DNA from: a virus
Virus record (IMG/VR): IMGVR_UViG_3300050821_006049
Strand: one strand, 5' to 3'
Length of the DNA: 64,000 bases
Part shown: one piece after another, positions 9,999 to 63,742 of the stretch
How the letters are laid out: each line of letters opens with the position of its first letter
How positions within the stretch are numbered: position 1 is the first letter of the stretch
Made by a program: the position numbers and the translations under genes
Notes under the pieces: model-generated
What the model was told of the DNA's origin: nothing
Database searches by the model: none
The model's input: only the letters and a program-made list of their open reading frames with translations

Positions 9999-10005
9999 AA
10001 CTACC

Positions 10006-24326: not shown

Positions 24327-24402
24327 GCCATGATCGGGGGCCGACGGCCCAGCCAGTCGCGAGGCCCCAGCAAACGCCAGCGCCTTGGCTACGAATGCCA
24401 GA

Positions 24403-45847: not shown

Positions 45848-46480
45848 TTAGCTGCCGCTGACCTCGCTGTACTGCATCGGCGCGACAAACGTTTCTGGCG
45901 GCGCGACGCCAGTGATGTTGACGGTGACGGCGGCTCCTACGATCGGAGCCTGTACCCCTAACGGGTCTGTCCAAGTGCCAAAGGTCGTAATGCTCTCGGT
46001 CGGTGCCGACGCGGGGGCCAGGAAACTGAATGTAACGCCATCGGCATTGAGGGTAACGCCGAGATCCGAGGCGTTGGCCTCGCCGATCGGCACAGACCAA
46101 GTGATCTGGCTGCCGGGGAAAACTTGGGGCGGGGTCGAGGAATCGACACACTGAACGCCGTCGGATGCGCCGCCGGCAGTCAGGTTGATTGAGGTAACAA
46201 TAGCCATAGTGCTGGCGCTCCTATACACGAGAGGAGGAACCGGCGGGATTGCCGGGTTCAGATCCGCCTCGATTTGCGTGTCGGCCGCGTCGATCGCGTC
46301 GAAGCGGGTCTTCAAATATGCTTTGAGGTCGGCGATCTGCTGGCTGAGTTCGGTCAGCAGGCCCAAGCCCGCCGCCGTGTCCACTTGCAGCGCATTCTGA
46401 ATCTGCTTCACGTCCTGTAAAATTTGCAGGACATCGGGCGGCTGAGGCGTCGGGCGAAACGGGAAGCGAGACTTAGCCAT
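45848..46480 (-). CDS. Coiled-coil + beta-sandwich protein (210 aa), last gene of the operon
   Basis: Helical N-terminus (…ILQDVKQIQNALQVDTAAGLGLLTELSQQIADLKAYLKTRFDAID…) and beta-rich C-terminus (…ITWSVPIGEANASDLGVTLNADGVTFSFLAP…). No signal peptide. Confidence 0.55.
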   Translation of the reverse strand: MAKSRFPFRPTPQPPDVLQILQDVKQIQNALQVDTAAGLGLLTELSQQIADLKAYLKTRFDAIDAADTQIEADLNPAIPPVPPLVYRSASTMAIVTSINLTAGGASDGVQCVDSSTPPQVFPGSQITWSVPIGEANASDLGVTLNADGVTFSFLAPASAPTESITTFGTWTDPLGVQAPIVGAAVTVNITGVAPPETFVAPMQYSEVSGS

Positions 46481-46530
46481 GGCCTCTAATTACCACAGGG
46501 ATTGTGACAGTTGATAGAGGGGGAAACTAC

Positions 46531-46785
46531 CTACGGCTGGTGCGGCGGCGTCGGCCCTACACGCATAGTCGGCGGCGGGGCAGGAGCAGGCACGGGATTG
46601 ACGATCGGTGCCGGGGGAGTCACTTCGGCCCAAGGTGGATGCATGAAGAGGCCCGCAACCAAGGAGGCGGCGCCTGCGCCAGCGGCCATGACGGCCGTGT
46701 GGGCCGGGAAGACTGGAGCGAAGATCCCTAGCACGCCAGACACAGCCGTGAACGCCAACGTTCCCCACTTGAGAACATTTCCCAT
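46531..46785 (-). CDS. Small membrane protein (84 aa)
   Basis: Start at ATG 46783-46785 (MGNVLKWGTLAFTAVSGVLGIFAPVFPAHTAVMAAGAGAASLVAGLFM…). Two hydrophobic helices and a Pro-rich tail. Confidence 0.5.
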   Translation of the reverse strand: MGNVLKWGTLAFTAVSGVLGIFAPVFPAHTAVMAAGAGAASLVAGLFMHPPWAEVTPPAPIVNPVPAPAPPPTMRVGPTPPHQP

Positions 46786-46937
46786 CAGAGCCTCCCGTGT
46801 CCGACGAGCAGCCAGATGATGAGCACGACCAGCAAGATTCCGCCGATGCCAATCCCGCCGCCCCATCCGTACTGGCGGTATCCGAAGCCGCCGCCGAATA
46901 TCAGCAGCAGCACGATGACGATGATGATCAGGTCCAA
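46785..46937 (-). CDS. DUF3309-like small membrane peptide (50 aa)
   Basis: TTG start 8 nt after AGGAG. My translation is (M)DLIIIVIVLLLIFGGGFGYRQYGWGGGIGIGGILLVVLIIWLLVGHGRL, the DUF3309-like pattern (TM - GyG/W-G-G - TM). TGATG overlap with the next gene. Confidence 0.5.
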   Translation of the reverse strand: MDLIIIVIVLLLIFGGGFGYRQYGWGGGIGIGGILLVVLIIWLLVGHGRL

Positions 46938-47020
46938 GGTCAGGACTCCTCAGTGCCGAGCACAAGCAGGATCAGCCATAGCACAAATACGATGCCCTAG
47001 CGTGATCCAGCCTGCGGTCG

Positions 47021-47212
47021 TCATTCGGGAGCCGCGCTGCCGTCGATCGGCCCGCGCCCGGCCTGCTCAGGATGAGACCCTGGCGGCGGCTCTATCTTGA
47101 TCCCCGGCTCATGCTGGTAGACGCCGCCGTCGCGGATGTAGACTGTGATCCCGAGTGCCCATGCCACAGCCTTAGCCTTCCGCAGCACCGCTTCGTCAGG
47201 AGTTTCGGTCAT
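47021..47212 (-). CDS. Small hypothetical protein (63 aa)
   Basis: ATG 47210-47212 with an ATGA overlap. MTETPDEAVLRKAKAVAWALGITVYIRDGGVYQHEPG…. Confidence 0.4.
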   Translation of the reverse strand: MTETPDEAVLRKAKAVAWALGITVYIRDGGVYQHEPGIKIEPPPGSHPEQAGRGPIDGSAAPE

Positions 47213-47616
47213 AGCCCACCGAGCGGGACGCGCAGCCCCAGCATTTGAAGCTGCAAGATGATCGGCAGGATCACCGGCGCGCACGGCCCTGCGGCCACGC
47301 CCTGCGCCAGCCTGTATCGCTCGACCAGCACGGCGAGCCCATCGCCCGTTGGATCGGGAGAGGCCATCACAGCGCCACCCAGCGCACCCCAGCACTGCGC
47401 TCCGGCTGCATCACCGCTCTTGGTCGCGATGACCCCGGCGTTGGCTACGTCGGTTGCGGTGAACTGCTGAAGCTGCGAGCAGGCCGAGAAAGCGATGGTC
47501 GCGATGATGGCGAGCCGTTTTGCGGCTGATCGGGTTACTTTCCGCCATCCTTTGCGCGTCCATTTCCACGCCACCCCTTCGGCATCGTAGAAACGATCTT
47601 GAGTGAGACGCTTCAT
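47209..47616 (-). CDS. Lipoprotein-like protein (135 aa)
   Basis: 'RLAIIATIAFSAC|SQ' is a lipobox-like F-S-A-C after a hydrophobic segment, preceded by an unusually long basic N-region. Confidence 0.45.
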   Translation of the reverse strand: MKRLTQDRFYDAEGVAWKWTRKGWRKVTRSAAKRLAIIATIAFSACSQLQQFTATDVANAGVIATKSGDAAGAQCWGALGGAVMASPDPTGDGLAVLVERYRLAQGVAAGPCAPVILPIILQLQMLGLRVPLGGL

Positions 47617-47795
47617 AGCCCCGGCACTCCGTCCTCGAGGTCAGCGAACGTCGGGCGCGGCCCGAACGAGTGCAGAGCCTCGTGTAGCCCGCGAATGGCG
47701 GCGGCGTGGTCGCCATGGAAGCCTACCGTATCAGGGTAGGCTTGGGCCAACAGCCGCGCGCAAGCGACGAGGAGCTGGAGTTCGTAGGGGTCCAC
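47613..47795 (-). CDS. Small hypothetical protein (60 aa)
   Basis: ORF with an ATGA overlap downstream. Confidence 0.35.
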   Translation of the reverse strand: MDPYELQLLVACARLLAQAYPDTVGFHGDHAAAIRGLHEALHSFGPRPTFADLEDGVPGL

Positions 47796-47846
47796 ATCTC
47801 GCCCTTCGATTATCTGCCGTCCCTTAGCACAACCGCCATGCGACTG

Positions 47847-48152
47847 TCAAAGTCTCGCCAGGAGATGGAAATGCTCGATCAGCACCACGCCGGCTGTCGC
47901 TGCACCTAGCATCCACGCGACCCGGATCGTGATCTTCGCGACAGACGCCTGGAGATCGATCAGGGCCGAACTTAGCTGGGCCGCCGCCGCTTCCTGCCGC
48001 CGCTCGACCGCCTCGATGCTGAGCTTGACTTCCTGAAACATGGCCCTCGTGCGCTCCCGATCTTCCATGCACATCCGCTCGTGTGCGGCGAGGAGCGCTT
48101 GGGTGCCGAACATGAAAACCATGCCTTCCATGATACGGAGGCAAACGCTCAC
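47847..48152 (-). CDS. Coiled-coil protein with C-terminal TM helix (about 94-101 aa)
   Basis: '…RERTRAMFQEVKLSIEAVERRQEAAAAQLSSALIDLQASVAKITIRVAWMLGAATAGVVLIEHF'. Internal ATGs at 48131 and 48122 are alternative starts. Confidence 0.45.
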   Translation of the reverse strand: MSVCLRIMEGMVFMFGTQALLAAHERMCMEDRERTRAMFQEVKLSIEAVERRQEAAAAQLSSALIDLQASVAKITIRVAWMLGAATAGVVLIEHFHLLARL

Positions 48153-48255
48153 TCAATGTGAACCACTTCACACTACCGAGCGTCATTTCTGCGTCCTTTT
48201 TTCCAGCACGGAACCGTATCACGAGGCCAGAAGCCCAGCAAATCGCGTATCGCGG

Positions 48256-48567
48256 CTATGTTTGAGGTGGGTTGCGCTGATCTTCGGCCGCCGTAGCGGC
48301 CCGCGCCTCGCCAATCTCGATACCACGCAGCTCACCTCGTGCATCAGCGGCCGCCTCGGCCTTGGAAACAAGCGAATTGGTGGCAACATGAACCTCTTCG
48401 ACCTTGGCCGCCACATGCTGAATTTCGGTTACCGCCGCCTGGGCATGCGCCGCAGCCTCGCGCGACGCCGCTACAGTCTCTCGCCGGGCAAGGATCGTAT
48501 TCCAGATGCCGTAGAGCACGCCGAGCGCGGTAATGCCCTGGAACAGGACTAGAAGCCAGCTCTGCAT
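48256..48567 (-). CDS. N-terminal TM + coiled-coil protein (103 aa)
   Basis: MQSWLLVLFQGITALGVLYGIWNTILARR… is followed by Ala-rich helices. It directly follows the 1301-aa gene. Confidence 0.5.
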   Translation of the reverse strand: MQSWLLVLFQGITALGVLYGIWNTILARRETVAASREAAAHAQAAVTEIQHVAAKVEEVHVATNSLVSKAEAAADARGELRGIEIGEARAATAAEDQRNPPQT

Positions 48568-48577
48568 CGCGGCCCCA

Positions 48578-51500
48578 TCAGAAATGATTGTCCGCGCCCC
48601 ACTGAACCTGCCCGTCGCTGTAGGTCGTGCTTAGCGGGGTTACATAAGGCGTCAGTTGGGTGATTGCCGTGTTCGCGTCGGTGCTAGTCCCGAGGACGCC
48701 GTTGAGCGCCTTGCGCCATTGCGCGGTGGCATACATCTCAGCCTCTTCCTCACCGTTCACGGCAGGATTGCGCCAGTCACCGGACGATGCCGCCGGACAA
48801 CTCGCATTAGCTATCGTCGCCACCCCAAAATCGGCGGTGATGTTCCAGGTCACGTAGGTTGTGCCGCCGGTGCAAACACCGCCCGAGATCGTTGGTTGTG
48901 TCGTGCTCAGTTGGCCAAATGCCGCGCCAGAAGCGTCCATGCAAAGCCAAAGCCATTGCCCATCGGTCACCTGTGGGGTCGAGGACGGTGGCCATCCCGA
49001 CAGCCCTTGGCTGGAGTCGCTCGGGCTCGTCTGATCGTGCCAATCAACGTCGGCGATGCTCATCCGCGTGCCGGACGCCAGCCGAGTTGTCGAGAAGATC
49101 GGATAGACCCACGGCCAACTCGCCGACACCACGATGCGGTCATTGATCGAGATTCCTGGCCCGGTCACCGGAGACGAGATCGAGATCGTCAGCCCCGAGG
49201 CAGGCGCGGTGACATAGGTCGGCCATGTAAGGGCGGTTGGATTGTCGAGATCCTTGATCACCCATCCCGTCGTTATCGGCCCGCTTTGCGGTGAGGTGAC
49301 GCTAGACAGCGGGATCGAAGTGCCTCCGGGTGACACCGGCGCGGTCGCCGTCGGCGTGAATGACCACGCTCCGGTGTTGCCGGCGGTTTCCAGCGACGCC
49401 GAGACGGTCGATGAACCATTTTCGGTGTGGATCGTATTATCGCCGGAGATTGGGCCATTCCCACGCTGGGGCGTTCCGGTGACCGTCGTCGCGTCCCATC
49501 CCGGTTGGGGCGATACATAAGGCGCGGTCTGGTGGGTGGTCGCATTTGCCCATTTGATTACATAGGCAACATTGTTGTAGGCGCAGGTATTGATAGCCGG
49601 GTTCTTGACCAAGTAGTTGTCCAGGAAATTGCGCGCAAAACCAGTGAGGTTGGCGTCGTTGCCGTTATCGAACATCACCGCCTCGTCGGTGTTCATGCCC
49701 CAATACAGTTGCATGAATAATGTATCAATTATTGACGAATTGTTCGGAACCGTAGTCCTGTAATCCTCCGGCGTCGCCTGATCGCCGTTGGCGGTATTGT
49801 CATAATACTTGGGGAACGGCCACACCGAAGCCCCCGCCGCCGCATCCCAGAAATTGCCGGTGCCTATGAAACTGTAGAAAGCGTAATTCATCGCGTAGTT
49901 GGTGGCAACGACGTGCTTGTAGTATTGGATAGAGGGCTCGTTCGGCGGCCCGAGATATGCCACCGGCACAGTCACATTTGCCCACCACGAGTTTTGCCGC
50001 GGAATGCTGCTGCTCATCCCTTGCGCATCATATCTCGTTCCGCCGAATGACAGAGATCGCGTGTTTCCATCGGTATTGGATGGCCCTAACGCCACCCCAT
50101 TCGCTTCGTCGATCCAATTCTCCAAGATGTACCGCTCAGCCTCGACCAAATAAATGCCGTGCTGGAACTCAGGCCAGTGCGATGTGTCGCCGTATCCGTC
50201 GTTATTCTCGATCTGTGTATTGGCCAGGGCCGGCTGGGCGGTAGTCGGAGACGGGACATCGCCCTGCCACATAAAATCATTGGGATAGCTAGCTGCCTTG
50301 TTGTACTGATCCATCACGAAATCCCAGGTATTGGAGTCCGTGAACGCCGCTGGCGGGGTATATCCGCTGCCTGAGTTGAAGTAATTTAACGGCAGTCCCG
50401 TGTCATCGTACCGCGGTCCATCCATCATGCCTGCCGTTGATTCGGCGGCAACTCTCATGTTTGCTAGATAGCTAACGCCGCCGTCGCTCGCACCGCCTTC
50501 GGCTGCCTGATACCAGTATGCCCAAGGCGATCCCATTGGCCCAAGGCCAATATGCCCAGAACCACCCGACCCAAATCCTGTCGTTGCGTCGGTCCCGCCA
50601 TGCTCATAGGGCGCATAGAGGTTCGTGTAATAAGGCGAGCCGAATGTCCCCGTCGTCGTCGTAAGCACGGCCGGACTGACCGTGATTGTGTTATTCAGCG
50701 GCAGAGCCGCCCGCGCGGCGTGGATGAAGGCGAGGTCGGCTGAGGCTGGGGAGACGACTACCTGCGCGAGAGCTTGGCTGTTCGGTGTGCTGTAAGTTCC
50801 TGTCGTCGTCGGCAACCACACTGGCCGGCCGGTTGCTCCGATCGCGCAGGCCTCGCATGGATCGAGCGCCGCCCACGAGCCGTTGACCTGCTGCTGGATC
50901 GCACACCATTTGTTATTTGAGCCGCCCTGCGCACAGCCGATGATCTCGGTCGAGCCGTTCTTGAAGTCGGCGTCGTAGACGACGTTCGGCCAGCCATTGT
51001 GGTTTTTATAGACTGAATTATCGGTAGTAATTACCGGCTTGATCGCATATAGACCGGTAGGTCCGGTCCACGCCTCGATGGTGAAGCGGAACCGCTCCCA
51101 GGCATCTTTGGTGCCGCTTACGTTGTCGCGGTATGCGCCGATGCCTCGATACGCCTTCACAGTCGGGCCGGAGGTGTAGACGCACAGGGCCGGGGTGGAC
51201 GTGGCCGATATCGGACCCGCTGCTAACGTACCCTGGATCGTCCATGTCGTGCCGCTGCCAGCCGTGATTATCGCAAGGTTGGTTCCGTCATCGACCATCT
51301 GTCCGATCGAGACCACGCCCGTCACGCTCGAAACCGTCATCGTCGAGCCGGAAAACGACTCCGTGAAGGCGGCTGCCCCTGGCATCGACGCACAACTCGA
51401 TGGATCGGTCGAGCCATAGGCGTTGAGGATCGTATCAATGTCGGCGGTCATCGCCCCGGAGCCGACCGCCGAAAAGCCACCGCCAGCCTTGATGATATTG

Positions 51501-52483
51501 ACGCCGGTTATGACATTGGAGCCATTCACGGTGACCGTGAAGGCCCCGTTGCTGGTTCCCCCGTGGATCGTGTAGCCAAATGCGAGAGTATCGCCGGAGG
51601 TAATATTCGCGGCGGCGTTGGCGGACATCGTTACCGTCTTTGCGCTGCTATTAAACGACAAAACCGTCGTGTTGTCCGGGATCGAGCTCGGATTCGTTAC
51701 GTCGATGATAGTGATTTGCTGGGGGTTGTTGAAAATGTACTGTGGCGGGACAGGGAGGCTGGAGAAAGTCAGGACCGCGCTACCTGACGATGTAGTCGTA
51801 CTGACAGACGCTTGGTAATTCGATGGTGTGATGCAATTCGCGCTACCCGACGTGCAGTTGAAGCCGAGCAAGCCTTGTGGAGCCGCCGCGGTCGTAGGCT
51901 GGTTCCTGACATACCCGCCAGAGATCGCGCCACCTGACACATAGAAACCGGGATAGGCCCCGTACCAGACTGATGGTCCCTGCGGACCCTGCTTCGTATA
52001 GGAACCGTTCATGTTGCTCAGCACGACCTTGAAGTCGCTCGCAGCAGCGATCGTGGCTGGAGTCACTGAGGATGATGTAGGGAAGCTGCCGGCCTGAACT
52101 GAAAAAGTAACTTGCTGACTGGCTCCCGACGCCATCTGTGGCACAAAGCCCGAGAACGGGCAGAACCTCAACGATCCGTCTGGCCAGAACGAGCACTGCT
52201 GGCTGTCGATCTGGGCGCTCGCGAGAGTAACGCCGCCGACCTTGGCAACCACGATATCACCGGATGGGACCGCGCCGGGCGGATACATCGTGCCGATATG
52301 CGTCGCGACCATCGTCGTGCCAGCGATCGTCGGCGTCGTCGCGCTGGCGATGTTCTTGACCGTCTGAGAGAAAACCACGCCAGACGACACAGAAGACGCC
52401 GCGCCGTGGCTCCCCAGCCGGAAGTGCGCCGACGCCGGAAGGCACAGCGTCAGCATGACGACGAGAAGACGCAGTATCAGCAT
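48578..52483 (-). CDS. Very large secreted protein (1301 aa): beta-rich N-terminal half, Trp/Tyr-rich central enzyme-like region
   Basis: Start at ATG 52481-52483: MLILRLLVVMLTLCLPASA|HFRLGSHGAASS. The central segment '…HWPEFQHGIYLVEAERYILENWIDEANG…SWWANVTVPVAYLG…FWDAAAGASVWPFPKYYD…' suggests a polysaccharide-active (lyase/hydrolase-like) domain, by inference only. Confidence 0.6.
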   Translation of the reverse strand: MLILRLLVVMLTLCLPASAHFRLGSHGAASSVSSGVVFSQTVKNIASATTPTIAGTTMVATHIGTMYPPGAVPSGDIVVAKVGGVTLASAQIDSQQCSFWPDGSLRFCPFSGFVPQMASGASQQVTFSVQAGSFPTSSSVTPATIAAASDFKVVLSNMNGSYTKQGPQGPSVWYGAYPGFYVSGGAISGGYVRNQPTTAAAPQGLLGFNCTSGSANCITPSNYQASVSTTTSSGSAVLTFSSLPVPPQYIFNNPQQITIIDVTNPSSIPDNTTVLSFNSSAKTVTMSANAAANITSGDTLAFGYTIHGGTSNGAFTVTVNGSNVITGVNIIKAGGGFSAVGSGAMTADIDTILNAYGSTDPSSCASMPGAAAFTESFSGSTMTVSSVTGVVSIGQMVDDGTNLAIITAGSGTTWTIQGTLAAGPISATSTPALCVYTSGPTVKAYRGIGAYRDNVSGTKDAWERFRFTIEAWTGPTGLYAIKPVITTDNSVYKNHNGWPNVVYDADFKNGSTEIIGCAQGGSNNKWCAIQQQVNGSWAALDPCEACAIGATGRPVWLPTTTGTYSTPNSQALAQVVVSPASADLAFIHAARAALPLNNTITVSPAVLTTTTGTFGSPYYTNLYAPYEHGGTDATTGFGSGGSGHIGLGPMGSPWAYWYQAAEGGASDGGVSYLANMRVAAESTAGMMDGPRYDDTGLPLNYFNSGSGYTPPAAFTDSNTWDFVMDQYNKAASYPNDFMWQGDVPSPTTAQPALANTQIENNDGYGDTSHWPEFQHGIYLVEAERYILENWIDEANGVALGPSNTDGNTRSLSFGGTRYDAQGMSSSIPRQNSWWANVTVPVAYLGPPNEPSIQYYKHVVATNYAMNYAFYSFIGTGNFWDAAAGASVWPFPKYYDNTANGDQATPEDYRTTVPNNSSIIDTLFMQLYWGMNTDEAVMFDNGNDANLTGFARNFLDNYLVKNPAINTCAYNNVAYVIKWANATTHQTAPYVSPQPGWDATTVTGTPQRGNGPISGDNTIHTENGSSTVSASLETAGNTGAWSFTPTATAPVSPGGTSIPLSSVTSPQSGPITTGWVIKDLDNPTALTWPTYVTAPASGLTISISSPVTGPGISINDRIVVSASWPWVYPIFSTTRLASGTRMSIADVDWHDQTSPSDSSQGLSGWPPSSTPQVTDGQWLWLCMDASGAAFGQLSTTQPTISGGVCTGGTTYVTWNITADFGVATIANASCPAASSGDWRNPAVNGEEEAEMYATAQWRKALNGVLGTSTDANTAITQLTPYVTPLSTTYSDGQVQWGADNHF

Positions 52484-55252: not shown

Positions 55253-56313
55253 CGCAATGCGTTGTAAATTTGTGACGGCAAACCAGCGGTCAACGACGCA
55301 TCGATGTTAAGTATTGCCATCCCCCTAAAATAGTTGTTGTTACACAGCGTATAATCACCAGAGCAGCCAATAACTATCCCGTCCTGAGTGTTGACCGTAG
55401 TAAATGGGGCACAGTTAGCTGGCCCCGTCTGTGAATTATTGTACCAAATGTTTGAGCCGCCAGCAGTAGAGCTATAGGTGATAACTCCAGTAACGTCTAT
55501 TGTCGGAGATGTAGAAAATGGAGAGCCGGCAACACACAACGCGCCGCCCTCAATATCCGTATCATAATCAGAAAAGCCTCCACTTACAAAGAACTCGGTA
55601 TTCATCGCCGAGCCAGAAGGAACGTTGCCGGGCGCTGGGTTGGTCTCAATTCTCCCATATTCACCGCTGGCATGAGTGACATCTCCATAGAAGGCGTTGC
55701 TTCCTCTACCTATTAAGGTTCTGGCGGCGCCACCATCGGCCAACGTACAGCCGTTGCTGAAGAGGTATTTAGCCGCCGGACTGGTATATGGGACCGCAGG
55801 CGATCCAGCTATGCCAGTCCCCGGTGTGATAATAGCCAGCGTTCCATCACTCGTGCGAACCTGAACGAGCGGCGCGTGAGCCGTCGCGCTGGTCAGATTA
55901 TAAGGCGCGCCAGCTATCAGATCGCAGCCCATTCCTGTTTGATTATAAATGGTTGTGTAAGTGCAATCATTATACTGAGTACTATAGGTTTGGGCTGTCG
56001 TAGTGCCCCCGTTCCCAACGCAAAATGCTGTTACCGCGCTAACATTAACCGAGAAAGTGCCTCCAATATAGCTGCCGTTAAGCGTCGCGCTGTCACTAAT
56101 GCGAGTAAGTTTGAATGGCACGGCATTCGAGCTTACTCGACGCTGGTTCAGGTCATAGGCGTAGATACATGATCCGGCGATAAAGGACTGTGAGCAAAAA
56201 TCAGTGTATCCAGCCGCCCCGCCCTTCAGTAACAGCCCTAACGCCGGAGCGACAGAGAAAGACAGCGCCACAGCGACAAGGAGTGATCCTATCCCAAGAA
56301 TGGAACGCATCAC
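55249..56313 (-). CDS. Secreted GH54-like protein, paralogue B
   Basis: MMRSILGIGSLLVAVALSFSVAPALG|LLLKGGAAG. 'SCIYAYDLNQRR…PFKLTRISD', 'FCVGNGG…CTYTTIYNQTGMGCDL', 'IGCSGDYTLCNNNYFRGMAI'. Clear paralogue of 54200-55252. Confidence 0.55.
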   Translation of the reverse strand: MMRSILGIGSLLVAVALSFSVAPALGLLLKGGAAGYTDFCSQSFIAGSCIYAYDLNQRRVSSNAVPFKLTRISDSATLNGSYIGGTFSVNVSAVTAFCVGNGGTTTAQTYSTQYNDCTYTTIYNQTGMGCDLIAGAPYNLTSATAHAPLVQVRTSDGTLAIITPGTGIAGSPAVPYTSPAAKYLFSNGCTLADGGAARTLIGRGSNAFYGDVTHASGEYGRIETNPAPGNVPSGSAMNTEFFVSGGFSDYDTDIEGGALCVAGSPFSTSPTIDVTGVITYSSTAGGSNIWYNNSQTGPANCAPFTTVNTQDGIVIGCSGDYTLCNNNYFRGMAILNIDASLTAGLPSQIYNALR

Positions 56314-56314
56314 T

Positions 56315-57997
56315 TCACTGTACCGAAAACTTCATGACCCGACCCGCCTCGGTCGTCCAGGTAGAGCCTCCATTCGAGCTAAAGCTTTCGACGCCACCCG
56401 AATAAGCGCCGGTGTCGTTATAGGCGAATGTGTATCCTCCTGCCGTATTTGTGGGGCTGCTGAACGCCACCGCATACTCAGTCCCCGCTATTAGCGACAG
56501 AGAACTGAACGTGAAGGTGACACGCTGTGGTGCCCACGAGAATGCGGCCGACGCAAGCGTTTGCGTGGCGAGAGCGCTTCCAGTGGGATGGTGCGACCCG
56601 TCAACTGCGAATAGTGTGGCAGTGAGCCCCGCCGTCGGCCCCGTGCAGCCGGTGTTGACTTTGCATAGCCGGTTGGCTTGGCCCGTCGTCAACACGAAAT
56701 TGATTGATGATAGGTTCGTAGGGGCAGTAAAACTCTGAGCCCTTTGATAAGGCGGCGACAAATCTCCTTCCCCAAGGTCCGCGCTTTGGGTCGAGCCTTG
56801 TTCCCAATATGCTACTCCAGACAGACCCTCCGAGCCTGTCTGCGCCCCCGCCCAATATGGGGTCGGCACGGGGCCGGCGGGCAGCGTGATGCTATTCGAT
56901 GGGGCGCATGTGATCGCGTTGAGAGCGCTGCCGGTGAATGCGAAGACGGCCCAATAGATATTGTTAAGTGCCTGATTCCCGAGGCCCGGTGTGGTGCCAC
57001 TGAGAGCTTGCGCCCATCTATCCGGCAGGTATAGCACCTGGGTTCCTGGGATGGCAGTGGGTGTCCCCCCGCCGTTTTGGCCGGAGCAAGAATTTGAGTT
57101 TAGTGCAGTGATCCCGGACCATGCAGACAGCGGAGAGGTCGAGCTGATGTAGTCGGTCGCCGCGATGAAGTATTCCGCAAGAGGTCCGTATGTGATGTAG
57201 TATGTGCTGCCAACCACGAACAACCCGACACCTTCGCCGGTCACACCAGTATCAAAGTCGCTCCCCGTCGCGTCGGTGAATGACGAGTTCAGCTCCTGCG
57301 CAAAGATATGCCGGCCGCTATTGTTGTTTGAGTAGGCAATCCACGCATTCCCTGATCCATCTATCGCCAGAGAATAATCCCCGTTCGCGTTCGCCGATCC
57401 GCCGTGACCGAGATGCGCTGGCGCAGTTGCGGCCGCGCAGCCATTGCTGGTCATCTGGGCTACGCTAGCACAGGTCCATACCATATAGCTTTGGTTCGTG
57501 CCCTGAGCGCCATTAATCCAGATGACATAGTTATTATTCGCGGCGTTGAATAATATGACGGTGTTGTAGCATCCCGGAAACACAATCGGCGAGGTAGCTG
57601 TCGGACTGCAATTAGCAGCCACCGGAGACCCGGTCGGGTCGAAGGGCTGGCCGAGGAACTGGAATTGTGGATTGCCGTTAGCGTCTGCCCACACTTGGTA
57701 GATGTTAACGCCGCAATACACCCCGTTATTCTGTATGCTCTGGCCGCATCCGTTGGCGTCGCCATACAGATAAGCAGTAGTGCCGACTTGCAAGATGCGG
57801 GCGTCGCTTACATCGATAGAGTTCCCATTTATGTCGAATTGGTGGATCTGGGTACTGGTGAGAGATGACACGTAATTGTGTATCGTGGCGGCGTGATATG
57901 TAGATCCACCTCCAGACGCGCGCGTCAGCAACAACGCCGACGCCGGAGCGACGGCGAGGCACAGCAGCGCAGCTAGGAGCCATCGGCACAGCATCAT
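56315..57997 (-). CDS. Secreted GH43-like beta-propeller candidate + C-terminal beta-sandwich (560 aa)
   Basis: MMLCRWLLAALLCLAVAPASA|LLLTRASGGG. Blade-like repeats 'ARILQVGTTAYLYGD', 'NIYQVWADANGNPQFQFLG', 'NTVILFNAANNNYVIWING', 'DYSLAIDGSGNAWIAYSN', 'GEGVGLFVVGSTYYITYG' and 'LYLPDRW' resemble GH43/five-bladed-propeller patterns (inference). Confidence 0.5.
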   Translation of the reverse strand: MMLCRWLLAALLCLAVAPASALLLTRASGGGSTYHAATIHNYVSSLTSTQIHQFDINGNSIDVSDARILQVGTTAYLYGDANGCGQSIQNNGVYCGVNIYQVWADANGNPQFQFLGQPFDPTGSPVAANCSPTATSPIVFPGCYNTVILFNAANNNYVIWINGAQGTNQSYMVWTCASVAQMTSNGCAAATAPAHLGHGGSANANGDYSLAIDGSGNAWIAYSNNNSGRHIFAQELNSSFTDATGSDFDTGVTGEGVGLFVVGSTYYITYGPLAEYFIAATDYISSTSPLSAWSGITALNSNSCSGQNGGGTPTAIPGTQVLYLPDRWAQALSGTTPGLGNQALNNIYWAVFAFTGSALNAITCAPSNSITLPAGPVPTPYWAGAQTGSEGLSGVAYWEQGSTQSADLGEGDLSPPYQRAQSFTAPTNLSSINFVLTTGQANRLCKVNTGCTGPTAGLTATLFAVDGSHHPTGSALATQTLASAAFSWAPQRVTFTFSSLSLIAGTEYAVAFSSPTNTAGGYTFAYNDTGAYSGGVESFSSNGGSTWTTEAGRVMKFSVQ

Positions 57998-58962
57998 TCA
58001 CCGCGAAGTCGTCGGATCGCGTCCTTGCGCTGACGCAGCCAGCGTTCGGCCGTAGCCACGCCGCCAAGCCCGACAGTCAGCGGCGCGAGGATCATCGCCT
58101 TGCTTGTCGCCGTACCAGTGGGCGGTGTGCTGGCTGGTTGTTCAAGCACGTCATAAACGACATCAATAGGCCATCGCAGCAGTGAATAAGGATTTGCATT
58201 CAGATAAGCATGTTCCCCAGCCGTTAAAAATCTGTTGCCCCATGCATAAGCAACGGTCGCCACCATGCTGCCTGTTCGAGTACTGCTCTGAAACTCTTGA
58301 AGAGTAAACTGCCCATTGGCATTCCAGTTCGCGAGTGGAGACACCATTACCGACGGGCTCCCTTGGAGCACCTGCTGGATACCATTCACATAAAGCGAAG
58401 GAAGCGCGCCTGAAACGAACGACGCTCCGGCCGAAACCATAGATCCCACAACCGGCACCGTTGTCCCCGCAGGCAACGCTGTGGTTGTGGTGTTAGTTGG
58501 GTATGCAACACCAATAACACTGTCGGACGGAGCTGGTTGATCGGGAGCAGCCAGTAGAGCAAGCTGAAGAAAGTTCGTCGTATTTATATAGAAACCAAAC
58601 ATCTGGGCGGGCGCAGTGCCAGTATTTATAGGCCCCCACTTTCCTCGGATGAACAGCGACACCGCGCCTGTTGGCGGGTTAGCTACAAAATTCGCTGGAA
58701 GCCCAGATGTGTTTGCCTGGCCCAAGATGCCATTAAGGCCTGGCCCCTCTGGAGTGTTCACGTTATATGAGTTTGCGTTGCGGCGTACCGTTAGATCCAG
58801 TAGCCCCGGAACAGCTAAATTTGTCATTGTGCTGCCAGGGAAGGCGGCCGGATAAAACGCAGCCAATAGTCCTTTCGCTAATGGATGAGAACGCGCAACT
58901 ACCGGGATTGTGCCCGTCATCGCGCGTCGAGAGATCGACGCGTATCCGGTAAGAAAAGCCAT
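57994..58962 (-). CDS. LamG/concanavalin-like jelly-roll candidate with C-terminal hydrophobic-basic tail (322 aa); no signal peptide
   Basis: Start at ATG 58960-58962 (MAFLTGYASISRRAMTG…), after the upstream stop at 58970. '…GAVSLFIRGKWGP…SMVSAGASFVSGALPSLYVNG…' is LamG-like. The tail is 'AMILAPLTVGLGGVATAERWLRQRKDAIRRLRGE'. Confidence 0.5.
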   Translation of the reverse strand: MAFLTGYASISRRAMTGTIPVVARSHPLAKGLLAAFYPAAFPGSTMTNLAVPGLLDLTVRRNANSYNVNTPEGPGLNGILGQANTSGLPANFVANPPTGAVSLFIRGKWGPINTGTAPAQMFGFYINTTNFLQLALLAAPDQPAPSDSVIGVAYPTNTTTTALPAGTTVPVVGSMVSAGASFVSGALPSLYVNGIQQVLQGSPSVMVSPLANWNANGQFTLQEFQSSTRTGSMVATVAYAWGNRFLTAGEHAYLNANPYSLLRWPIDVVYDVLEQPASTPPTGTATSKAMILAPLTVGLGGVATAERWLRQRKDAIRRLRGE

Positions 58963-58969
58963 CAGAGGA

Positions 58970-59530
58970 CTAATTGTTGAGGTTGATGTTGTAGGTGCGA
59001 TAGAGCAGAGTGTTGTTGCCGCCAGTCGCGCTGAGCGCAGCACCAGAACTATTAAAGACAGCGATCCGAAAACTGCCGGGCGGAATGATAATGCCGGTGC
59101 ATGTTCCTGCCAGAGTCGTGGTCGCACCCGCCGTCTCTTGTGGCATAGAGCAGACGAGTCCGGCCGCAGGCGCTCGGGTGATCGTCGCGCCAGAAGCCAT
59201 TTCACCAGTTCCATAGGTCGTGCCGTTGCTATTCAGCGGCATCAGATAGACGCCGATATACGCCCCGGCAGGAGGGGTGGCGCTGCCTACCGTCCATACG
59301 CCGCCTAAATCCATGAACTGGTCTTGCGCGGTTTGGTTAGTGATATCGGCGGCACTCGAAAGGACAGTGCTGCCGTTGGCAAGCGAAGTCATGTCGCCCG
59401 AGGCCATGACCGCAGTCCATGTGTACCCAACGCCGTTACCGGCGGTCCATGCCGAACGCGCCGCAGCGTGTGCTCCTTGCGCAGCAATCAGCGCAAAAAC
59501 GCCGGCAAGCAGAAGTCTTTTCAGCATCAC
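58970..59530 (-). CDS. Secreted beta-sandwich protein (186 aa)
   Basis: MMLKRLLLAGVFALIAAQGAHA|AARSAW…. '…PPAGAYIGVYLMPLNSNGTTYGTGE…GSFRIAVFNSSGAALSATGGNNTLLYRTYNINLNN' looks like a jelly-roll, receptor-binding-tip-like character (inference). Confidence 0.55.
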   Translation of the reverse strand: MMLKRLLLAGVFALIAAQGAHAAARSAWTAGNGVGYTWTAVMASGDMTSLANGSTVLSSAADITNQTAQDQFMDLGGVWTVGSATPPAGAYIGVYLMPLNSNGTTYGTGEMASGATITRAPAAGLVCSMPQETAGATTTLAGTCTGIIIPPGSFRIAVFNSSGAALSATGGNNTLLYRTYNINLNN

Positions 59531-59537
59531 CTTACCC

Positions 59538-62447
59538 TCAGTTAACTATTAAGTAATTCACGCAAGCCGGGTTGGTCGCGAGCGTCGCCGGAACCTGGAT
59601 TGTAAAACTGGTTGCCGCTGTTCTCGCGGTCACGACCGGCTGAACGAGAGTTGCGAGCGTCGTGTTACAAGTCGTCGCTGATATCGTCGCGCTTTCGTCG
59701 ATCGTCAGCAAAATTTCGCTCGCCGCCGTCACAGCCGTCGTATTGACGACAAGAGTAGGGTTCACACCCGTTGGCACCGCCACGCTTCCAGCTCTTGCCG
59801 AGACGCACACGGCAGGTGAGGCCCCATTAGAGCAATTAGTCGCCGTCGCTCCAGTCGGTGCGCCGCCCACGCATTGGGCTGTAGCTGAGGCCGAGTCCAC
59901 TGCGCAAGAGAAAGTCGTCACCGCCCCGGCAGTCGGATTAAGCGCCATAGTCGTGGGATTATAGCCAGACGCGAGAGCAAGGGTCCGGCCGCCAGTCCCA
60001 TCCTGGGTAACCTCAAAAGTCATAATCTGATTTGTTGACGCGATCTGACCCGTCGGAAATCCGAGGGTTCGGTTCGCGGTGATCGTAACTGTTTGGACGC
60101 CTCCGCAGGAGGCCGCCACGGCGATGGTCGCGGCGTCTGTTAATGGGCAAGGAGCCGACGCTGCCTGAGTGTACTTGAACGTGCCGGTTTGTGTGGTCGC
60201 GCCCGAGATTGTGTGCGCGCCGCTTAGCGTGCCCGACAGCGCAGCGCCATTAATTGTCGGCGTGGTTAGAGTCTTGTTGGTCAGAGTCTGGGTATCGGTC
60301 GTCCCGACGATGGTTCCGGCCGGAGCGGCGACACTCGATGTCAACGTAGTCGAGCTGCCGGCGATCGGGATTTGGCCAGTGGTCAAGCCCGAGATGCCGG
60401 AGCTTCCGGTGCCGCCGTTCGGAAAGCATTGCCAGTTGGTGCCATCAGTTATCAAAGTGACGGGCGTGGCGACGCCGCTGAAGGTCGTAGCCCCCGCGCC
60501 GCAGCCACCGTAGAAGGTTGCCGTCCCGCCTACGGTGGTGATCGAGTAAGTGTGTGTGCCGTCATACCCAAAGTTGTATGAATTGCTGCCCGCAGCACCG
60601 GGATTGGGCGCGGTATAGACCACCGAAGCCGCAGTCGCGGTCAGCATATAATTGCTGTCGTTGGTACTGCTCGCGACACAATTGGAGTTCAGAGTGCAAC
60701 TCGTAGTCCGGGCCGCGTAGAAGGGCGGCTGGATGAATATCGAACTGCCATTGGTAACGGTCTGGGTGCCAGGGTTATAGGTCGATGCTGTGTTGCCGAT
60801 GCCCGGCGTGGCCAGCGTGATCGTCGTCCCTCCACTGCAAGCACCCGAAGACGCTGCCAGTACATTCCCGCTGGTCAGCCCGAGGCACTGCGTCTGAGTG
60901 CCTGTGAGCGTCCCGCTGAAGACCGGGACGCCAGAGAAAGTCGGGGAGCCAGCTAGAGTGCCGGAGAGGGTCGCCCCGGCAATTGTCGGAGTCGTCAGCG
61001 AAGGGCTCGTCCCGAAAACCAGCGCGCCAGACCCGGTCTCACCCGTTACGGCCGCCGCTAAGTTCGCCGAAGAAGGCGTCGCCAGAAATGTCAGAACACC
61101 AGTGCCGGGGACCACCGTGCCGGAGAGGGTTGTTCCAGACGCCCAGATACCAAACGAACCGTTTGTGATGCTCCCGGACGGGTTAAGGGTGCCACTGCCT
61201 GCTGGCGTCTGCCACGTCATATCGTCGCGCAGGAATGTCGTCCCCGTCTGCGTTGCCGGTTGCGGCACTGACAGCGCCCCGACATATTCGCCGGCGCTAT
61301 CCGCTGCGATCGCAATATCTTGGTAGGAGCCTAGCTTGATCGATGCTAACCCGTTCAGGGTGCTGGTCGTGACGTTCAACGTGGAAGTCTGATGCTCAGT
61401 GAAAGCGTCGAGCCCGAAGCCCGTACCAAGCGATCCGGTCGATTGCGCCAGGGTCATCGTGGTCGGCGAGGCGTTGGTCGCCAAGACGAGCTGGCCGGCA
61501 TTGGCCGCGACCAGCGCGACCGTGCTTGTGCTGATGACGGTCGGGACGATCGGACACGCCGATGGGGCCGTCATCACACCAGACGCCGCGCAGAGCGAAC
61601 CCGTCAGCGAAGCCGGAACCTCCGTCGCCATGATCGCGCCAGAGCCGGATGCAACGAGCGACGCTCCGGTTCCGACAACCATCGCCGCTGTCGTGTTTGT
61701 GCTAGAGGTCAAGGCGCTGAAAGCGGCCGACCCGCCGCTGCCGTTTGACGCCGCGGTGATCAGGCCCTTGGCATTGACCGTGATGTTGGCGTTGGTAAAG
61801 CTTCCGACATTAGAGTTGACCGTCGCAAAAGTGGCGACGGCTCCGCTCGTGGTCAAATCGCCCGACAGGTTCCCGGCGGCGGTCACCAGTCCTTTGCCGT
61901 TCACGGTCTCTGCCGCAAAAGTCCCGACATTGCCGTTGACTGTCGCGAGCGTGCCGACCCCGGTCGAGCCGAGCAGCGTGAAGTCGCCAGTGACAGTCAC
62001 CCCGGCGACTGCCGTTCCGGCTCCCGGATAGCCAGCGATCTGATTCAGCGTACCGCTACCGACGGTGCCCGAACCTCCTGTCGCGGCGGCGGGAGCCCAC
62101 GCCAATCCGTTCCACGCCAAAACGTTTGTCGACGCCGGAGCAGCCGCCGATACCGGGCGCCCCTGCAACCCGACCACCGACGTTAAGAACGAGCCCGATC
62201 CAGGGGTTGTCACATCTCCGGTGAAGGCCGGGATACTGGCGTTGAAAAAGGTCGAAAGCTGAGAAGCGCTGGCCGACTTGGTTGGCGTGGAGGAGCTGCA
62301 ACCGCCGGTGGCGCAATCGGCGAATAGATCGGTCGAGAGGACGCTTCCGACCGGCACCAACTGGCTGATGTAGGAGTTCGATCCCGCAAACCCCGCGCAC
62401 GGGAGCAGCGAAACAGCCAAGAACGCCAGCGCCCGTAGGAATTTCAT
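59538..62447 (-). CDS. Secreted tail-fibre-like protein (969 aa), Thr/Gly/Ser/Ala-rich with fibre-type repeats
   Basis: [21 protein letters not shown]|[47 protein letters not shown]. Repeats are '[21 protein letters not shown]' / '[23 protein letters not shown]' and '[23 protein letters not shown]' / '[23 protein letters not shown]'. Confidence 0.65.
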
Positions 62448-62448
62448 T

Positions 62449-62811
62449 TTAGTTCACCAAAAGACAGCTAGAGGTATCCCCTCCGACGAGAACGCAGCTT
62501 GTCGTATCACCGCCGGTCAGCAACACACCCGGCGTGCTTCCCCCACCACCGCAGGCCGTGCAATTCGGCAGGCCCGTCGTCGGGTCATAGCCGCTGACGC
62601 ATCCGGTAGGGGGCACGCATTGTACGGGCGAGAGGCCGCGCGCCAGCGGGCAGGCAACGGTAGCGCCCCCTTGCGCGCAAGGCACAAGCTCGTTCCCGGT
62701 GAGCGGCATATGCGCCCTAGGGAGACATTGGATGCAGACCCCGTTGGGGTTTTGCGCGAAGGCAGCCCCGGCGCTCGCGAGGAATATCAGGATGAGCGCG
62801 AGGCGTCGCAT
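62449..62811 (-). CDS. Secreted Cys-rich small protein (120 aa) sharing the CIQCL…QGGATV.CP motif with 10006-11475
   Basis: [19 protein letters not shown]|[36 protein letters not shown]…. 12 Cys in total. Its stop lies 1 nt before the fibre gene ATG. Confidence 0.6.
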
Positions 62812-63195
62812 TCAGCCCACGAGATATTTGTAGAACGAGATATCGAGGACCGGGCTACCCGTCGCCGGGATGAAGTCGATCCGTCCGAGATTCCCCTGAT
62901 AGGTGAAGGTCGTCCCTGTTAAAACCAGCATGCCGACACTTGAGGTCGGCGCCGTACCATCATCTCGCCAGCGCACATTCTGCGTCTCGACCGTGATCAT
63001 CGCGACGACAGCGCCGTCGGGGATGCCGCCGGAGCAAGCGGTTAGCAACGTCGCCCCGCTGAGAGTGAGCTGACAGAAGCCAAGGGGGATGAGCGAGGTT
63101 GGTTGCGTGGGTAATTGCGCCCGCGCCGGTGAGATCCCGAATAGGATAAGAGCAAGAACCAGAACGCAGCGACGGATCACGGCTTGCCCCACCAT
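62812..63195 (-). CDS. Secreted beta-sandwich protein (about 122-127 aa)
   Basis: ATG 63193-63195 (MVGQAVIRRCVLVLALILFGISPARA|QLP…) or GTG 63178-63180 (GTGA overlap). The His/Arg-rich upstream part of ORF 62812-63411 was discarded. Confidence 0.5.
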   Translation of the reverse strand: MVGQAVIRRCVLVLALILFGISPARAQLPTQPTSLIPLGFCQLTLSGATLLTACSGGIPDGAVVAMITVETQNVRWRDDGTAPTSSVGMLVLTGTTFTYQGNLGRIDFIPATGSPVLDISFYKYLVG

Positions 63196-63560
63196 GCGTT
63201 GCCACGCGCCACATAAAGGTCTGTTCCGATGCCGGTGGTGTCCGCCAAAGTGGCCCCGCCGTTGATCGTGGTGCCGGTCGCCGCCGTGAGGGTCACGGTG
63301 CCCGCTGCCGCCGCGAACACATGGACGGTCCATCCCATCGGGAAGAGGGCGTTTGGCACCGGCAGGGTCACGGTCTCGGCGCCGGTGTTTTGAAACACCA
63401 GCAGTTTGCATTGATCGTTCGGAGACAGGGTGTAGGCCGTCTCGGCAGCTGGATGCGTGGTCGCGTGCTGGGAATAATCGGGGCAGTATGCCGCCTGCGC
63501 CAACGCCAATCCCGGCATCAGCGCCAAGGCCGCCGCCAGGAGGAACTTACGGGCAATCAT
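63177..63560 (-). CDS. Secreted beta-sandwich protein (127 aa)
   Basis: MIARKFLLAAALALMPGLALA|QAAYCPDY…. ATGA overlap with the upstream small basic protein gene. Confidence 0.55.
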   Translation of the reverse strand: MIARKFLLAAALALMPGLALAQAAYCPDYSQHATTHPAAETAYTLSPNDQCKLLVFQNTGAETVTLPVPNALFPMGWTVHVFAAAAGTVTLTAATGTTINGGATLADTTGIGTDLYVARGNAWWGKP

Positions 63561-63742
63561 GATTTTCTCCTTGCTTTGGTCTTTCGGCCTTGCCCGCTTT
63601 CGGACATGCCGATAGCGATAGCTTGCGACCGGCTCTTTACGGGGGAGCCGGAACTGGATTTGAGGGCTCCGGTTTTGTACTCGTGCATGACCGCATGCAT
63701 CTTCGACTGCTTCCCGGCCTTGGTGCGTGGCTTGGATTTCAT
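63557..63742 (-). CDS. Small basic protein of the DUF6496-like family (61 aa)
   Basis: 'SKMHAVMHEYKTGALKSSSGSPVKSRSQAIAIGMSESG' matches the '…VMHEFK.GELKSG.G.KVK.R.QAIAIALSEA…' pattern common in alphaproteobacteria, as I recall it. Confidence 0.6.
   Translation of the reverse strand: MKSKPRTKAGKQSKMHAVMHEYKTGALKSSSGSPVKSRSQAIAIGMSESGQGRKTKARRKS

Follow-up and report, generated by a model that had tools for sequence, protein, structure and literature searches.

Predicted signal peptides on the fibre-like and glycanase-like proteins of an uncultivated podovirus-like phage

We describe a cluster of eleven consecutive genes, G1-G11, on a stretch of 64,000 nucleotides (hereafter the window) from the IMG/VR virus record IMGVR_UViG_3300050821_006049, in which ten of the encoded proteins begin with a predicted signal peptide of canonical build. 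The observed pattern is real and well beyond chance. Judging from the sequence evidence laid out below, it is highly probable that G1-G5 and G7-G11 are exported by the Sec system, cleaved and oxidatively folded in the periplasm. As to what follows export, the explanation that we favour, with the scales about evenly poised, is that these proteins constitute a module of fibres and glycanases that matures in the periplasm, is released at lysis and acts free or loosely bound, instead of being built into the particle in the cytoplasm. In model tailed phages, fibres and tailspikes are assembled in the cytoplasm and lack Sec signals. A first-pass annotation of the same DNA had known of no described system with this organisation, and we too found no description of signal-bearing fibre modules in the full-text literature; what we found instead were signal-peptide and signal-anchor-release (SAR) endolysins, secreted morons and WceF, an enzyme exported by the twin-arginine translocation (Tat) route.

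Eleven coupled genes, ten with a predicted signal peptide

As the first-pass annotation had it, the eleven genes run back to back on the minus strand from 63560 down to 48578, and the abutments and overlaps that it listed are all present. G1 (63177-63560, 127 aa) and G2 (62812-63195, 127 aa) overlap by 19 nt; the stop codon of G2 directly abuts the start of G3 (62449-62811, 120 aa) at 62811/62812, and a single nucleotide separates the stop of G3 from the start of G4 (59538-62447, 969 aa) at 62447/62449. Beyond G5 (58970-59527, 185 aa) and G6 (57994-58962, 322 aa), an ATGA junction at 57994-57997 leads from G6 into G7 (56315-57997, 560 aa), and a second one at 55249-55252 from G8 (55249-56310, 353 aa) into G9 (54200-55252, 350 aa). 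G9 and G10 (52477-54213, 578 aa) share an ATG...TAA overlap at 54200-54213, and G10 and G11 (48578-52483, 1301 aa) the sequence ATGCTGA at 52477-52483. The cluster is translationally coupled and is situated inside the late operon. The interval originally assigned to it, 45848-63560, does contain the cluster but is too wide, as its part 45848-48577 holds eight other small genes, separate from the eleven. A public gene caller concurs on nine of the eleven genes: G3 is absent from its output, and the start of G8 is placed 13 codons downstream, the family alignment favouring the long form. We take G3 to be a genuine gene because it combines a putative signal and 10 Cys with a Cys-rich N-terminal module that is paralogous to the N-terminus of a second protein of this genome, p489 (10006-11475, minus strand), signal and module together showing 49% identity over 57 aa (E 1e-11).

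Signals were sought by a rule under which the n-region must bear a net positive charge, the core must span 8-20 uncharged residues whose Kyte-Doolittle hydropathy averages 1.6 or more, and positions -3 and -1 must be occupied by small residues. G1-G5 and G7-G11 were positive and G6 was negative, which agrees with the earlier observation that ten of the eleven genes open with an n-region, an h-region and an AxA-type site. The predicted cut falls between MIARKFLLAAALALMPGLALA and QA in G1, between SPARA and QL in G2, and between a signal of 21 residues and GS in G4. Besides p489 and the small p72 (9780-9998, minus strand), none of the 27 other proteins of the structural module, from the terminase to the ejection proteins, was positive, so that the cluster and the head-tail module together contain twelve signal-bearing genes. 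The genes for p489 and p72 form an insertion (window 9780-11475) between those for p230 and an SU10-like adaptor, at a point where the relatives L019 and L002 are gapless. As a control, 241 open reading frames (ORFs) with a minimum length of 80 aa were taken from all six frames; no more than three others reached the same score range, and two of these (25321-25767 and 27845-28144) resemble genuine secreted-protein genes.

No protein among G1-G11 displays a lipobox L-[AS]-[GA]-C or a Cys at +1, the only lipobox being that of a downstream gene (47209-47616). The Tat motif S/T-R-R-x-F-L-K is likewise absent from the eleven, G2 (IRRC) and G3 (MRRL) having the paired arginines without the motif or its spacing. 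Three further candidates were rejected, namely double-glycine leader peptides, as such leaders are not hydrophobic; type IV pilin signals, as the order of elements is reversed; and a C-terminal beta-signal for outer-membrane insertion in G11 (..DNHF), as there is no alternating pattern.

Conservation of the signals and cysteine parity

To the predicted signals we add three independent lines of evidence that render them credible, namely conservation of properties, cysteine parity, and covariation of signal and cysteines. In an alignment of 24 members of the G8/G9, G10 and G11 families, anchored on the predicted cut, all have A or G at -1, 21 have A or V at -3 as against three with S or G, and half (12/24) have Pro at -4; the hydrophobic cores diverge freely. 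Among homologues the signal is conserved in its properties and not in its sequence. In one G10 homologue, P0025, a Tat-type signal, MISRRSFLFAAALAVLPASAGA, with the motif SRRSFL, stands in place of the Sec-type one, and the post-cleavage motif described in the next section is absent. The G10 family is therefore probably able to switch its export route.

The mature parts of G1-G11 after the predicted cut contain 2, 2, 10, 18, 2, 0, 10, 10, 10, 16 and 14 Cys, and those of p489 and p72 contain 12 and 2, so that all twelve have an even count. For five (G2, which has one Cys in its signal, G4, G9, G11 and p72) this holds only once the Cys inside the signal is discounted. Among the proteins without a signal, G6 has no Cys, and the structural proteins contain 0.59% Cys and are of mixed parity. 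Even mature counts are also seen in 17/17 full-length homologues and in 29 of the 33 signal-bearing proteins of other or related viral loci, three of the four exceptions being from two low-GC contigs. These even counts suggest a disulfide signature, which supports removal of the signal and export. The earlier figure of 11-12 Cys in several of the mature parts is corrected by these predicted mature counts of 2-18, with 0 in G6.

The covariation is seen in G5, whose mature part has a single Cys pair. Its homologue on the viral contig L106 (11060-11557), 65% identical over the mature part, begins exactly at the start of mature G5 and is without a signal, as in-frame stops lie just upstream. In it, Gly and Val occupy the two columns that hold the only Cys pair of G5 and of the signal-bearing homologue on contig L111; hence, signal and Cys pair appear to have been lost together. 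The L106 protein has gained a different pair, NCIC, near its C-terminus.

Two readings of these N-termini dispense with a cleaved signal. According to one, they are not export signals at all: the proteins would be fibres assembled in the cytoplasm, the hydrophobic helix would serve trimerisation or tail insertion, and disulfides would form only after release. This is what the textbooks would lead one to expect of tailed phages, the signal-less G5 homologue works, and gene callers vary in their choice of start, as with G8. Nevertheless, we deem it very improbable, given that n-region, core and A-x-A site are kept in 24 proteins even as the sequence diverges, that the parity argues for removal of the signal, that signal and Cys pair were jointly lost in L106, and that a structural model of G9 leaves residues 1-37 unpacked; moreover, Sec or the signal recognition particle would in any case recognise a cationic N-terminus with a long Leu-rich stretch behind it. 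According to the other, the helix would stay in the inner membrane as an uncleaved signal anchor or SAR-type tether, with the domains in the periplasm, and would be released on depolarisation like SAR endolysins. Phages offer precedents in the SAR endolysins and T4 RI (PMC6116005), the hydrophobic LLL or HFRL that follows the A-x-A could extend the helix, and the core of G8 is rich in Gly, Ser and Ala. G1-G11 do not have the makings of SAR domains, however: G7, G10 and G11 have Leu-rich cores, a textbook -3/-1 site preceded by Pro is present throughout the families, and we found no muralytic domain in the cluster proteins. As five of the twelve proteins also attain even parity only without the Cys of the signal itself, we judge a persistent tether to be very improbable.

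A shared motif directly after the predicted cleavage site

In G7-G11 the predicted cut is immediately followed by a short motif, which reads LLL[TKR]..GG in G7 (LLLTRASGGG), G8 (LLLKGGAAG) and G9 (LLLRGGGNG), and HFRL.SHG in G10 (HFRLASHGG) and G11 (HFRLGSHG). The first-pass annotation had recognised it at the cleavage site, although its carriers are not, as it stated, the five largest proteins, the 969-aa G4 being without it. Homologues present SLLRGGGG, LLGHGGGG, FLLRAAPG, RFLPGGG, RIFPAGG, RFFFAGGF or DFRLGGHGG at the same position, and the consensus may be written as x-[FL]-[LFR]-[LRP]-G-G-G-G. Three mature families that are unrelated to one another carry the motif, in 24 proteins, as does the orphan G7. 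The signal of G7 is nearly identical to those of two G8/G9-like proteins (P0004 and P0007), and in a fragment, P0053, a G10-type continuation follows a G11-type signal; N-terminal modules have been swapped between the families. The earlier suggestion of a new N-terminal sorting or anchoring module is upheld to the extent of this recurrence, its role in anchoring or sorting being plausible.

In G8 and G9 the stretch from the cut to the first conserved position of the enzyme-type domain comprises only about 12 residues, too few to accommodate a conventional virion-anchor domain, and Pfam, PHROGs and the PDB gave no match to any such domain. The build of G8 and G9 is hence that of a secreted enzyme and not of an anchored spike.

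A fibre-repeat protein and GH54-like domains

Searches of G1-G11 against Pfam, PHROGs and NCBIfam gave nothing usable besides weak PHROG matches of G1 (phrog_21978, E 6e-6), and PDB sequence searches with G4, G7, G11 and the G8/G9 profile gave no match. More distant comparisons lend support to the initial impression that the cluster encodes tail fibres (the 969-aa protein) or carbohydrate-active enzymes (CAZymes). Residues ~150-250 of G4 are a generic phage tail-fibre repeat, which matches viral contigs in 92 stretches, the highest identity being 93% (80 loci kept). The C-terminal 430 residues of G4 are 55% identical to a signal-bearing 759-aa protein of contig L105, and a signal-bearing 791-aa protein of contig L108 shows 73% identity to residues 238-413. 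The sequence after the signal of G4 resembles the start of signal-less fibres, by visual comparison only.

We recovered 11 homologues for the G8/G9 family, 5 for G11 and, by an exhaustive HMMER search, 37 for G10, and a word-index search with G7 returned only G7 itself. G8 and G9 are paralogues with 38% identity. An AlphaFold model of G9 from a 13-sequence alignment (pLDDT 76, pTM 0.78), in which residues 1-37 are not packed on the domain, has GH54 arabinofuranosidases as its top five PDB matches in Foldseek (E 4e-13 to 6e-12, TMq 0.59-0.62). The best of these is the alpha-L-arabinofuranosidase 1wd3 (E 4e-13, TM 0.60, identity ~17%), and the next PDB match is a solved cyanopodophage tailspike, 9vyh_p (E 2e-7). 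The Pfam family PF09206 matches five of the 13 G8/G9 family members (best E 8.5e-6), with G8 and G9 themselves giving no match at E 0.1. The AlphaFold/Foldseek comparison of mature domains that the first-pass annotation had proposed has in this way yielded a GH54-like fold. The family displays an invariant D246-x-E248 and D310 (G9 numbering) and conserved Cys pairs, including a vicinal CC. The D-x-E and the later D may be equivalent to the catalytic E221 and D297 of GH54, for which the title of 6sxr is the only backing, and GH54 presumably shares the D-x-E, the later D and the Cys pairs with vicinal CC. In the model, then, G9 has a GH54 arabinofuranosidase-like fold, with G8 as its paralogue, and may be enzymatically active.

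As for the remaining members, distant signal-bearing homologues (~300 aa) of the C-terminal half of G10 match PF09206 above the 25-bit cut-off, over profile positions ~11-96 only, which by sequence links the G10 C-domain to that family; comparison of G10, and also of G6, with the G8/G9 profile in hhalign was negative. The AlphaFold model of the C-terminal 742 aa of G11 has a pLDDT of 32, and no fold was assigned. A GH43-like propeller for G7 and an alpha/alpha-toroid lyase for G11 are no more than leads.

The cluster lies at the fibre locus of a complete phage genome

The window maps by exact-protein matches to the ENA contig ERZ27253777:k141_5349627 (65,420 bp), with offsets of +41,827 and -23,452. 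Their absolute values sum to 65,279, i.e., to 65,420 less 141, as expected for a MEGAHIT end overlap of 141 bp; therefore, the MEGAHIT contig is a complete circle, a phage genome of ~65.3 kb, and the window reproduces it in rotated form. The contig ends join at window 23593/23594, a joint crossed by the ORF at 23436-24476, and the 1,279 bp of the genome that the window lacks lie between window 64000 and window 1, inside the genes for 600-aa, 86-aa and 195-aa proteins. The minus strand encodes, in order, a DnaJ-domain protein, TerL (20228-22141), a 564-aa portal candidate (named by position only, without a family match), an HNH endonuclease, the major capsid protein (13020-14024), p281, p230, the SU10-type adaptor (8750-9778), the 749-aa nozzle-like p749 (5660-7909), p472, a 675-aa protein with a phage tail lysozyme domain (1247-3274), the 600-aa protein, four small proteins including one with DUF6496, G1-G11, and finally membrane and lipobox proteins. 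To all appearances this is the gene order of a T7-like or SU10-like podophage with G1-G11 in the place of the tail-fibre gene, that is, between the ejection proteins and the lysis-like genes, and the genome looks like that of a podovirus.

This context bears on the notion, entertained in the first-pass annotation, of a chromosomal island of secreted glycanases beside a prophage, and on its variant, in which the genes would be morons expressed by a lysogen for surface conversion. Secreted CAZyme-like domains are indeed typical of bacterial genomes. Moreover, G5-G10 are low in G+C (0.54-0.57 in 2-kb windows over 54000-60000) relative to core phage genes, and their G+C at third codon positions is 0.50-0.65 as against 0.79-0.81 for the capsid and terminase genes, from which we infer horizontal acquisition of these cassettes, a recent one fitting the values. 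The island is refuted by the circularity of the phage genome, the position at the fibre locus and the contexts of the homologues, all of which, in six independent cases (the window and contigs L105, L106, L108, L111 and L112), are phage. A pattern of the G8/G9 family had no match in 185,579 species genomes, and scans of viral and genome collections with the G8/G9 profile had none either. In addition, the genes are coupled within a late operon, and promoter-like or terminator-like sites within 45-64 kb are not in excess over the shuffled expectation. We regard island and morons alike as exceedingly improbable.

The phage seems to draw on host envelope sorting elsewhere in its genome as well. 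A gene at 24663-25310 (minus strand) encodes a PEP-CTERM protein with a signal, the motif LPEPQT, a membrane helix and the basic tail RNRRG, which matches TIGR02595 at the cut-off. This protein makes an exosortase-bearing Gram-negative bacterium the most likely host. The combination of PEP motif, membrane helix and basic tail is absent from the translations of G1-G11. The adjoining gene at 25321-25767 (minus strand) is the signal-bearing 148-aa ORF already met in the six-frame control, and the ORF at 23436-24476 (minus strand) encodes a multi-pass membrane protein with a weak match to Wzy_C (O-antigen ligase-like). This group adjoins the DnaJ and terminase genes on their upstream side and suggests, besides an exosortase host, remodelling of the cell surface by the phage. 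Weak hints to hosts come from the metagenome-assembled genomes into which contigs of relatives were binned, a 57-kb contig in one from Terriglobia and a 3.8-kb contig in one from Mycobacterium.

A 61-aa basic protein with DUF6496 (63557-63742, minus strand) is encoded immediately upstream of G1. Directly after G11 comes a 103-aa protein with an N-terminal membrane helix (48256-48567, minus strand), holin-like by position only, and further downstream the lipobox protein (..IAFSAC..; 47209-47616, minus strand). A terminator-like GC hairpin with a T-run on the minus strand (45818-45800) ends the late transcription unit. PHROGs identified no holin, endolysin or spanin among the genes downstream of G11, for which reason the label of a lysis cassette rests on the membrane and lipobox features. 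The lipobox protein could be an outer-membrane spanin or a receptor-blocking lipoprotein of the kind of T5 Llp; the gene of Llp likewise adjoins a receptor-binding gene. Lipobox genes are also found after the fibre cluster in L105 (11029-11319) and L108 (12859-13203), and upstream of it in L112 (1611-1952). Elsewhere in the genome, the HNH endonuclease gene (14053-14661, minus strand) lies immediately upstream of the capsid gene, and small genes on the opposite strand (~16300-16770 and 7980-8760), coding for a KTSC domain, an HTH_17 protein and two unassigned products, break up the structural operon.

Relatives are few and distant. Against 50,697 phage records, neither megablast with the 17.7-kb region nor tblastn with G9, G4 and the G4 repeat gave a match, and the capsid protein matched only two uncultured 'Bacteriophage sp.' records at 30-33% identity; hence, for want of a cultured relative among these records, there is no virion proteome for comparison. 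The lysozyme-domain protein found no viral relatives in our search, and the sole match of the 600-aa protein is in a distant low-GC phage, whose 966-aa fibre is signal-less.

Homologous clusters and their wider occurrence

The gene-neighbourhood comparison recovered homologous clusters only on phage contigs, and none outside a phage context. On the 88-kb contig L105, the order is DUF6496, a 94-aa protein, the 759-aa fibre, a 188-aa G5-like, a 332-aa G6-like and a 343-aa G8/G9-like protein, and a lipoprotein, all of the cluster being signal-bearing besides the G6-like protein. As in L111, one small gene separates the DUF6496 gene from the fibre gene. Counterparts of G6, the sole signal-less member of the cluster, adjoin G5-like genes in L105, L106 and L111. 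L108 has a similar signal-bearing cluster, with no G5-like or G6-like gene seen after its fibre gene, and that of L111 includes a 783-aa signal-bearing protein of the pectate-lyase-type beta-helix; the apparent lack of a signal on the G8/G9-like gene of L111 coincides with frameshifts in the contig. L106 and L112 are other types of podophage that carry a G8/G9-like gene, accompanied in L106 by G5-like and G6-like genes. Relatives at the capsid level, L019, L008 and L110, show one or two signal-bearing ORFs apiece in their tail regions. L105 also encodes a bacterial HORMA-domain protein (PF18138; 18329-18964, minus strand) near its ejection-protein genes.

The pattern extends beyond these relatives. 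Among complete IMG/VR ORFs with the G4 fibre repeat, 17 of 57 are positive by the signal rule, about 14 being canonical at the first start codon on inspection. Signal-bearing clusters occupy the fibre locus and come immediately behind baseplate or nozzle genes in L083 (349, 1489, 693 and 200 aa), L060 (168, 811 and 2562 aa), L072 (1187 and 770 aa) and L049 (232 and 855 aa), and in L062 the sole fibre-like gene after the nozzle is signal-bearing. Signal-bearing fibre loci thus appear to be much more widespread than this window. Together with L070, L069 and L077, these five are unrelated contigs of 36-57% GC with myovirus-like and podovirus-like gene orders and signal-bearing fibre-repeat proteins; in the GC-richer ones (51-57% GC) most of these proteins have an even Cys count.

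Proposed roles: released enzymes or periplasm-matured virion fibres

Under the explanation that we favour, G1-G11 would prolong the structural operon and be transcribed late. Apart from G6, all their products, along with p489 and p72, would carry cleavable type-I signal peptides and be translocated unfolded into the periplasm of the Gram-negative host. There, the signal would be cut after the A-x-A site, usually with Pro at about -4, and the mature proteins would fold with disulfide bonds. The exported set would comprise the 969-aa fibre, the GH54-like G9 and G8, G10 with its PF09206-linked C-domain, and the orphans. Exit to the outside would come only at cell lysis, whereupon the oxidised, stable proteins would bind or cut the surface polysaccharide of the host. 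Of the options listed in the first-pass annotation, the phage-linked exported battery of depolymerases or adhesins is the best supported, through the phage context, conserved signals, Cys parity, GH54-like folds and fibre repeats; its versions as lysogenic conversion or receptor decoys find no support, the genes being in a late operon without promoters of their own.

Several points weigh against this explanation. The signal calls rest on rules and covariation. If all the exported proteins act off the particle, G6 (322 aa) and the nozzle-like p749 are the only candidate receptor binders, as no other fibre gene was found in the genome. At 18 kb, the cluster takes up 27% of the genome, a large investment for non-structural helpers; its position is the canonical one for fibre genes, and the fibre repeats of G4 are ordinary. 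A motif shared by unrelated mature domains would be needless for free enzymes and suggests a common partner. Lastly, G7 and G11 are without an assigned fold, and the GH54 catalytic residues of G9 are putative.

These points lead to a rival that we hold to be possible, if somewhat doubtful, in which the exported proteins are the receptor-binding apparatus itself, i.e., virion fibres matured and assembled in the periplasm that dock on fibreless, cytoplasm-built particles after breach of the inner membrane or burst, by way of their conserved mature N-terminal peptide, x-[FL]-[LFR]-x-GGGG, as the tag. Beyond the canonical podophage locus with no alternative fibre gene, it can draw on the repeats of G4 with their 92 viral-contig matches and on the resemblance, by eye only, of its post-signal N-terminus to the starts of signal-less fibres. 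A common N-module on different enzyme domains, in 24 proteins of three families plus G7, is the mounting style of multi-spike phages, and these modules are shuffled between families, as between G7 and P0004 or P0007. In L106, a podophage of another type, the G8/G9-like, G5-like and G6-like genes have arrived as a group; L062 encodes a single fibre-like protein after the nozzle, and it is signal-bearing; and a cyanopodophage tailspike, 9vyh_p, is also among the fold matches of G9 (E 2e-7). In vitro, P22 tailspikes as well as T4 fibres attach to particles, and holin lesions of the canonical kind are wide enough for big complexes to pass. Against this, such docking is without a precedent known to us or found in the full-text literature and would be confined to the seconds around lysis; G8 and G9 have no anchor domain and only ~12 residues ahead of the enzyme fold. 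Nor do all motif-carrying contigs have a partner protein in common, L108 being without G5-like and G6-like genes after its fibre gene, and PHROGs recognised no lysis family downstream of G11. The conjecture in its broader form, that in this uncultivated lineage of tailed phages and several others virions are completed across the membrane through Sec export, periplasmic pre-assembly and docking after holin action or burst, with the N-terminal peptide as the tag, is one that we offer tentatively and consider rather unlikely. Between particle building and free or loosely bound action we have a slight preference for the latter, in view of the secreted-enzyme build of G8 and G9, the missing anchor domain and the lack of precedent for assembly across a membrane.

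Relation to known systems

Among known phage systems, the multi-tailspike modules of Klebsiella phage PhiK64-1, E. coli phage G7C and CBA120 come close in having tandem glycan-active proteins at the fibre locus, a shared N-module, variable enzyme domains and recombining cassettes. Their spikes, in contrast, are signal-less, possess N-terminal anchor domains of at least 100 aa and are mounted in the cytoplasm, whereas the shared module here is a predicted Sec signal, about 8 residues and a Gly linker. Moron-encoded envelope proteins (lambda Bor and Lom, T5 Llp, Cor) are likewise phage-encoded and directed by a signal or lipoprotein signal to the host envelope; yet they are small single genes, often with promoters of their own, that serve exclusion or serum resistance, are neither fibre-like nor enzyme-like and do not form a coupled late operon. 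With GH54 alpha-L-arabinofuranosidase B (PF09206; 1wd3, 2d43, 6sxr) the cluster shares the fold of G9 and the character of a Cys-rich secreted enzyme. The differences are the low identity (~17%), the failure of G8 and G9 themselves to reach Pfam detection, the absence of the arabinose-binding C-domain and the phage context.

The use of host Sec by late phage proteins that wait outside the cytoplasm until lysis is familiar from the signal-peptide endolysin Lys44 of phage fOg44, SAR endolysins and the T4 antiholin RI (PMC6116005). Those are single muralytic or regulatory proteins, unlike the battery of 10-12 genes described here, in which we found no muralytic domain. Finally, WceF of Pantoea stewartii is a tailspike-like glycan-modifying enzyme with a cleavable N-terminal signal that acts on the producer's own exopolysaccharide (PMC7949094). 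It resembles the cluster enzymes in being such an enzyme exported by such a signal, and differs from them as a single chromosomal gene of an exopolysaccharide operon, with a beta-helix and Tat in place of Sec, even as the G10 homologue P0025 has the Tat-like SRRSFL. Our finding is hence a variant of phage depolymerase and fibre modules combined with Sec-exported late proteins, and would be categorically new if docking at lysis is true.

Implications

Tail fibres and tailspikes decide host range, and in this phage essentially the whole fibre and glycanase locus, 27% of the genome, appears to be routed through host export. On the practical side, the predicted disulfide-stabilised phage glycanases with their own export signals would be attractive enzymes. 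If the proteins act as free enzymes, phages would possess large secreted arsenals that are invisible to virion-centred annotation, which matters for the prediction of host range, the mining of depolymerases and the movement of phages through exopolysaccharide-rich soil biofilms. If docking is true, virion assembly would be completed across the inner membrane, a new route for Caudoviricetes, and this would explain the recurrence of signal-bearing, Cys-rich fibre clusters in unrelated contigs such as L083, L060, L072, L049 and L062.

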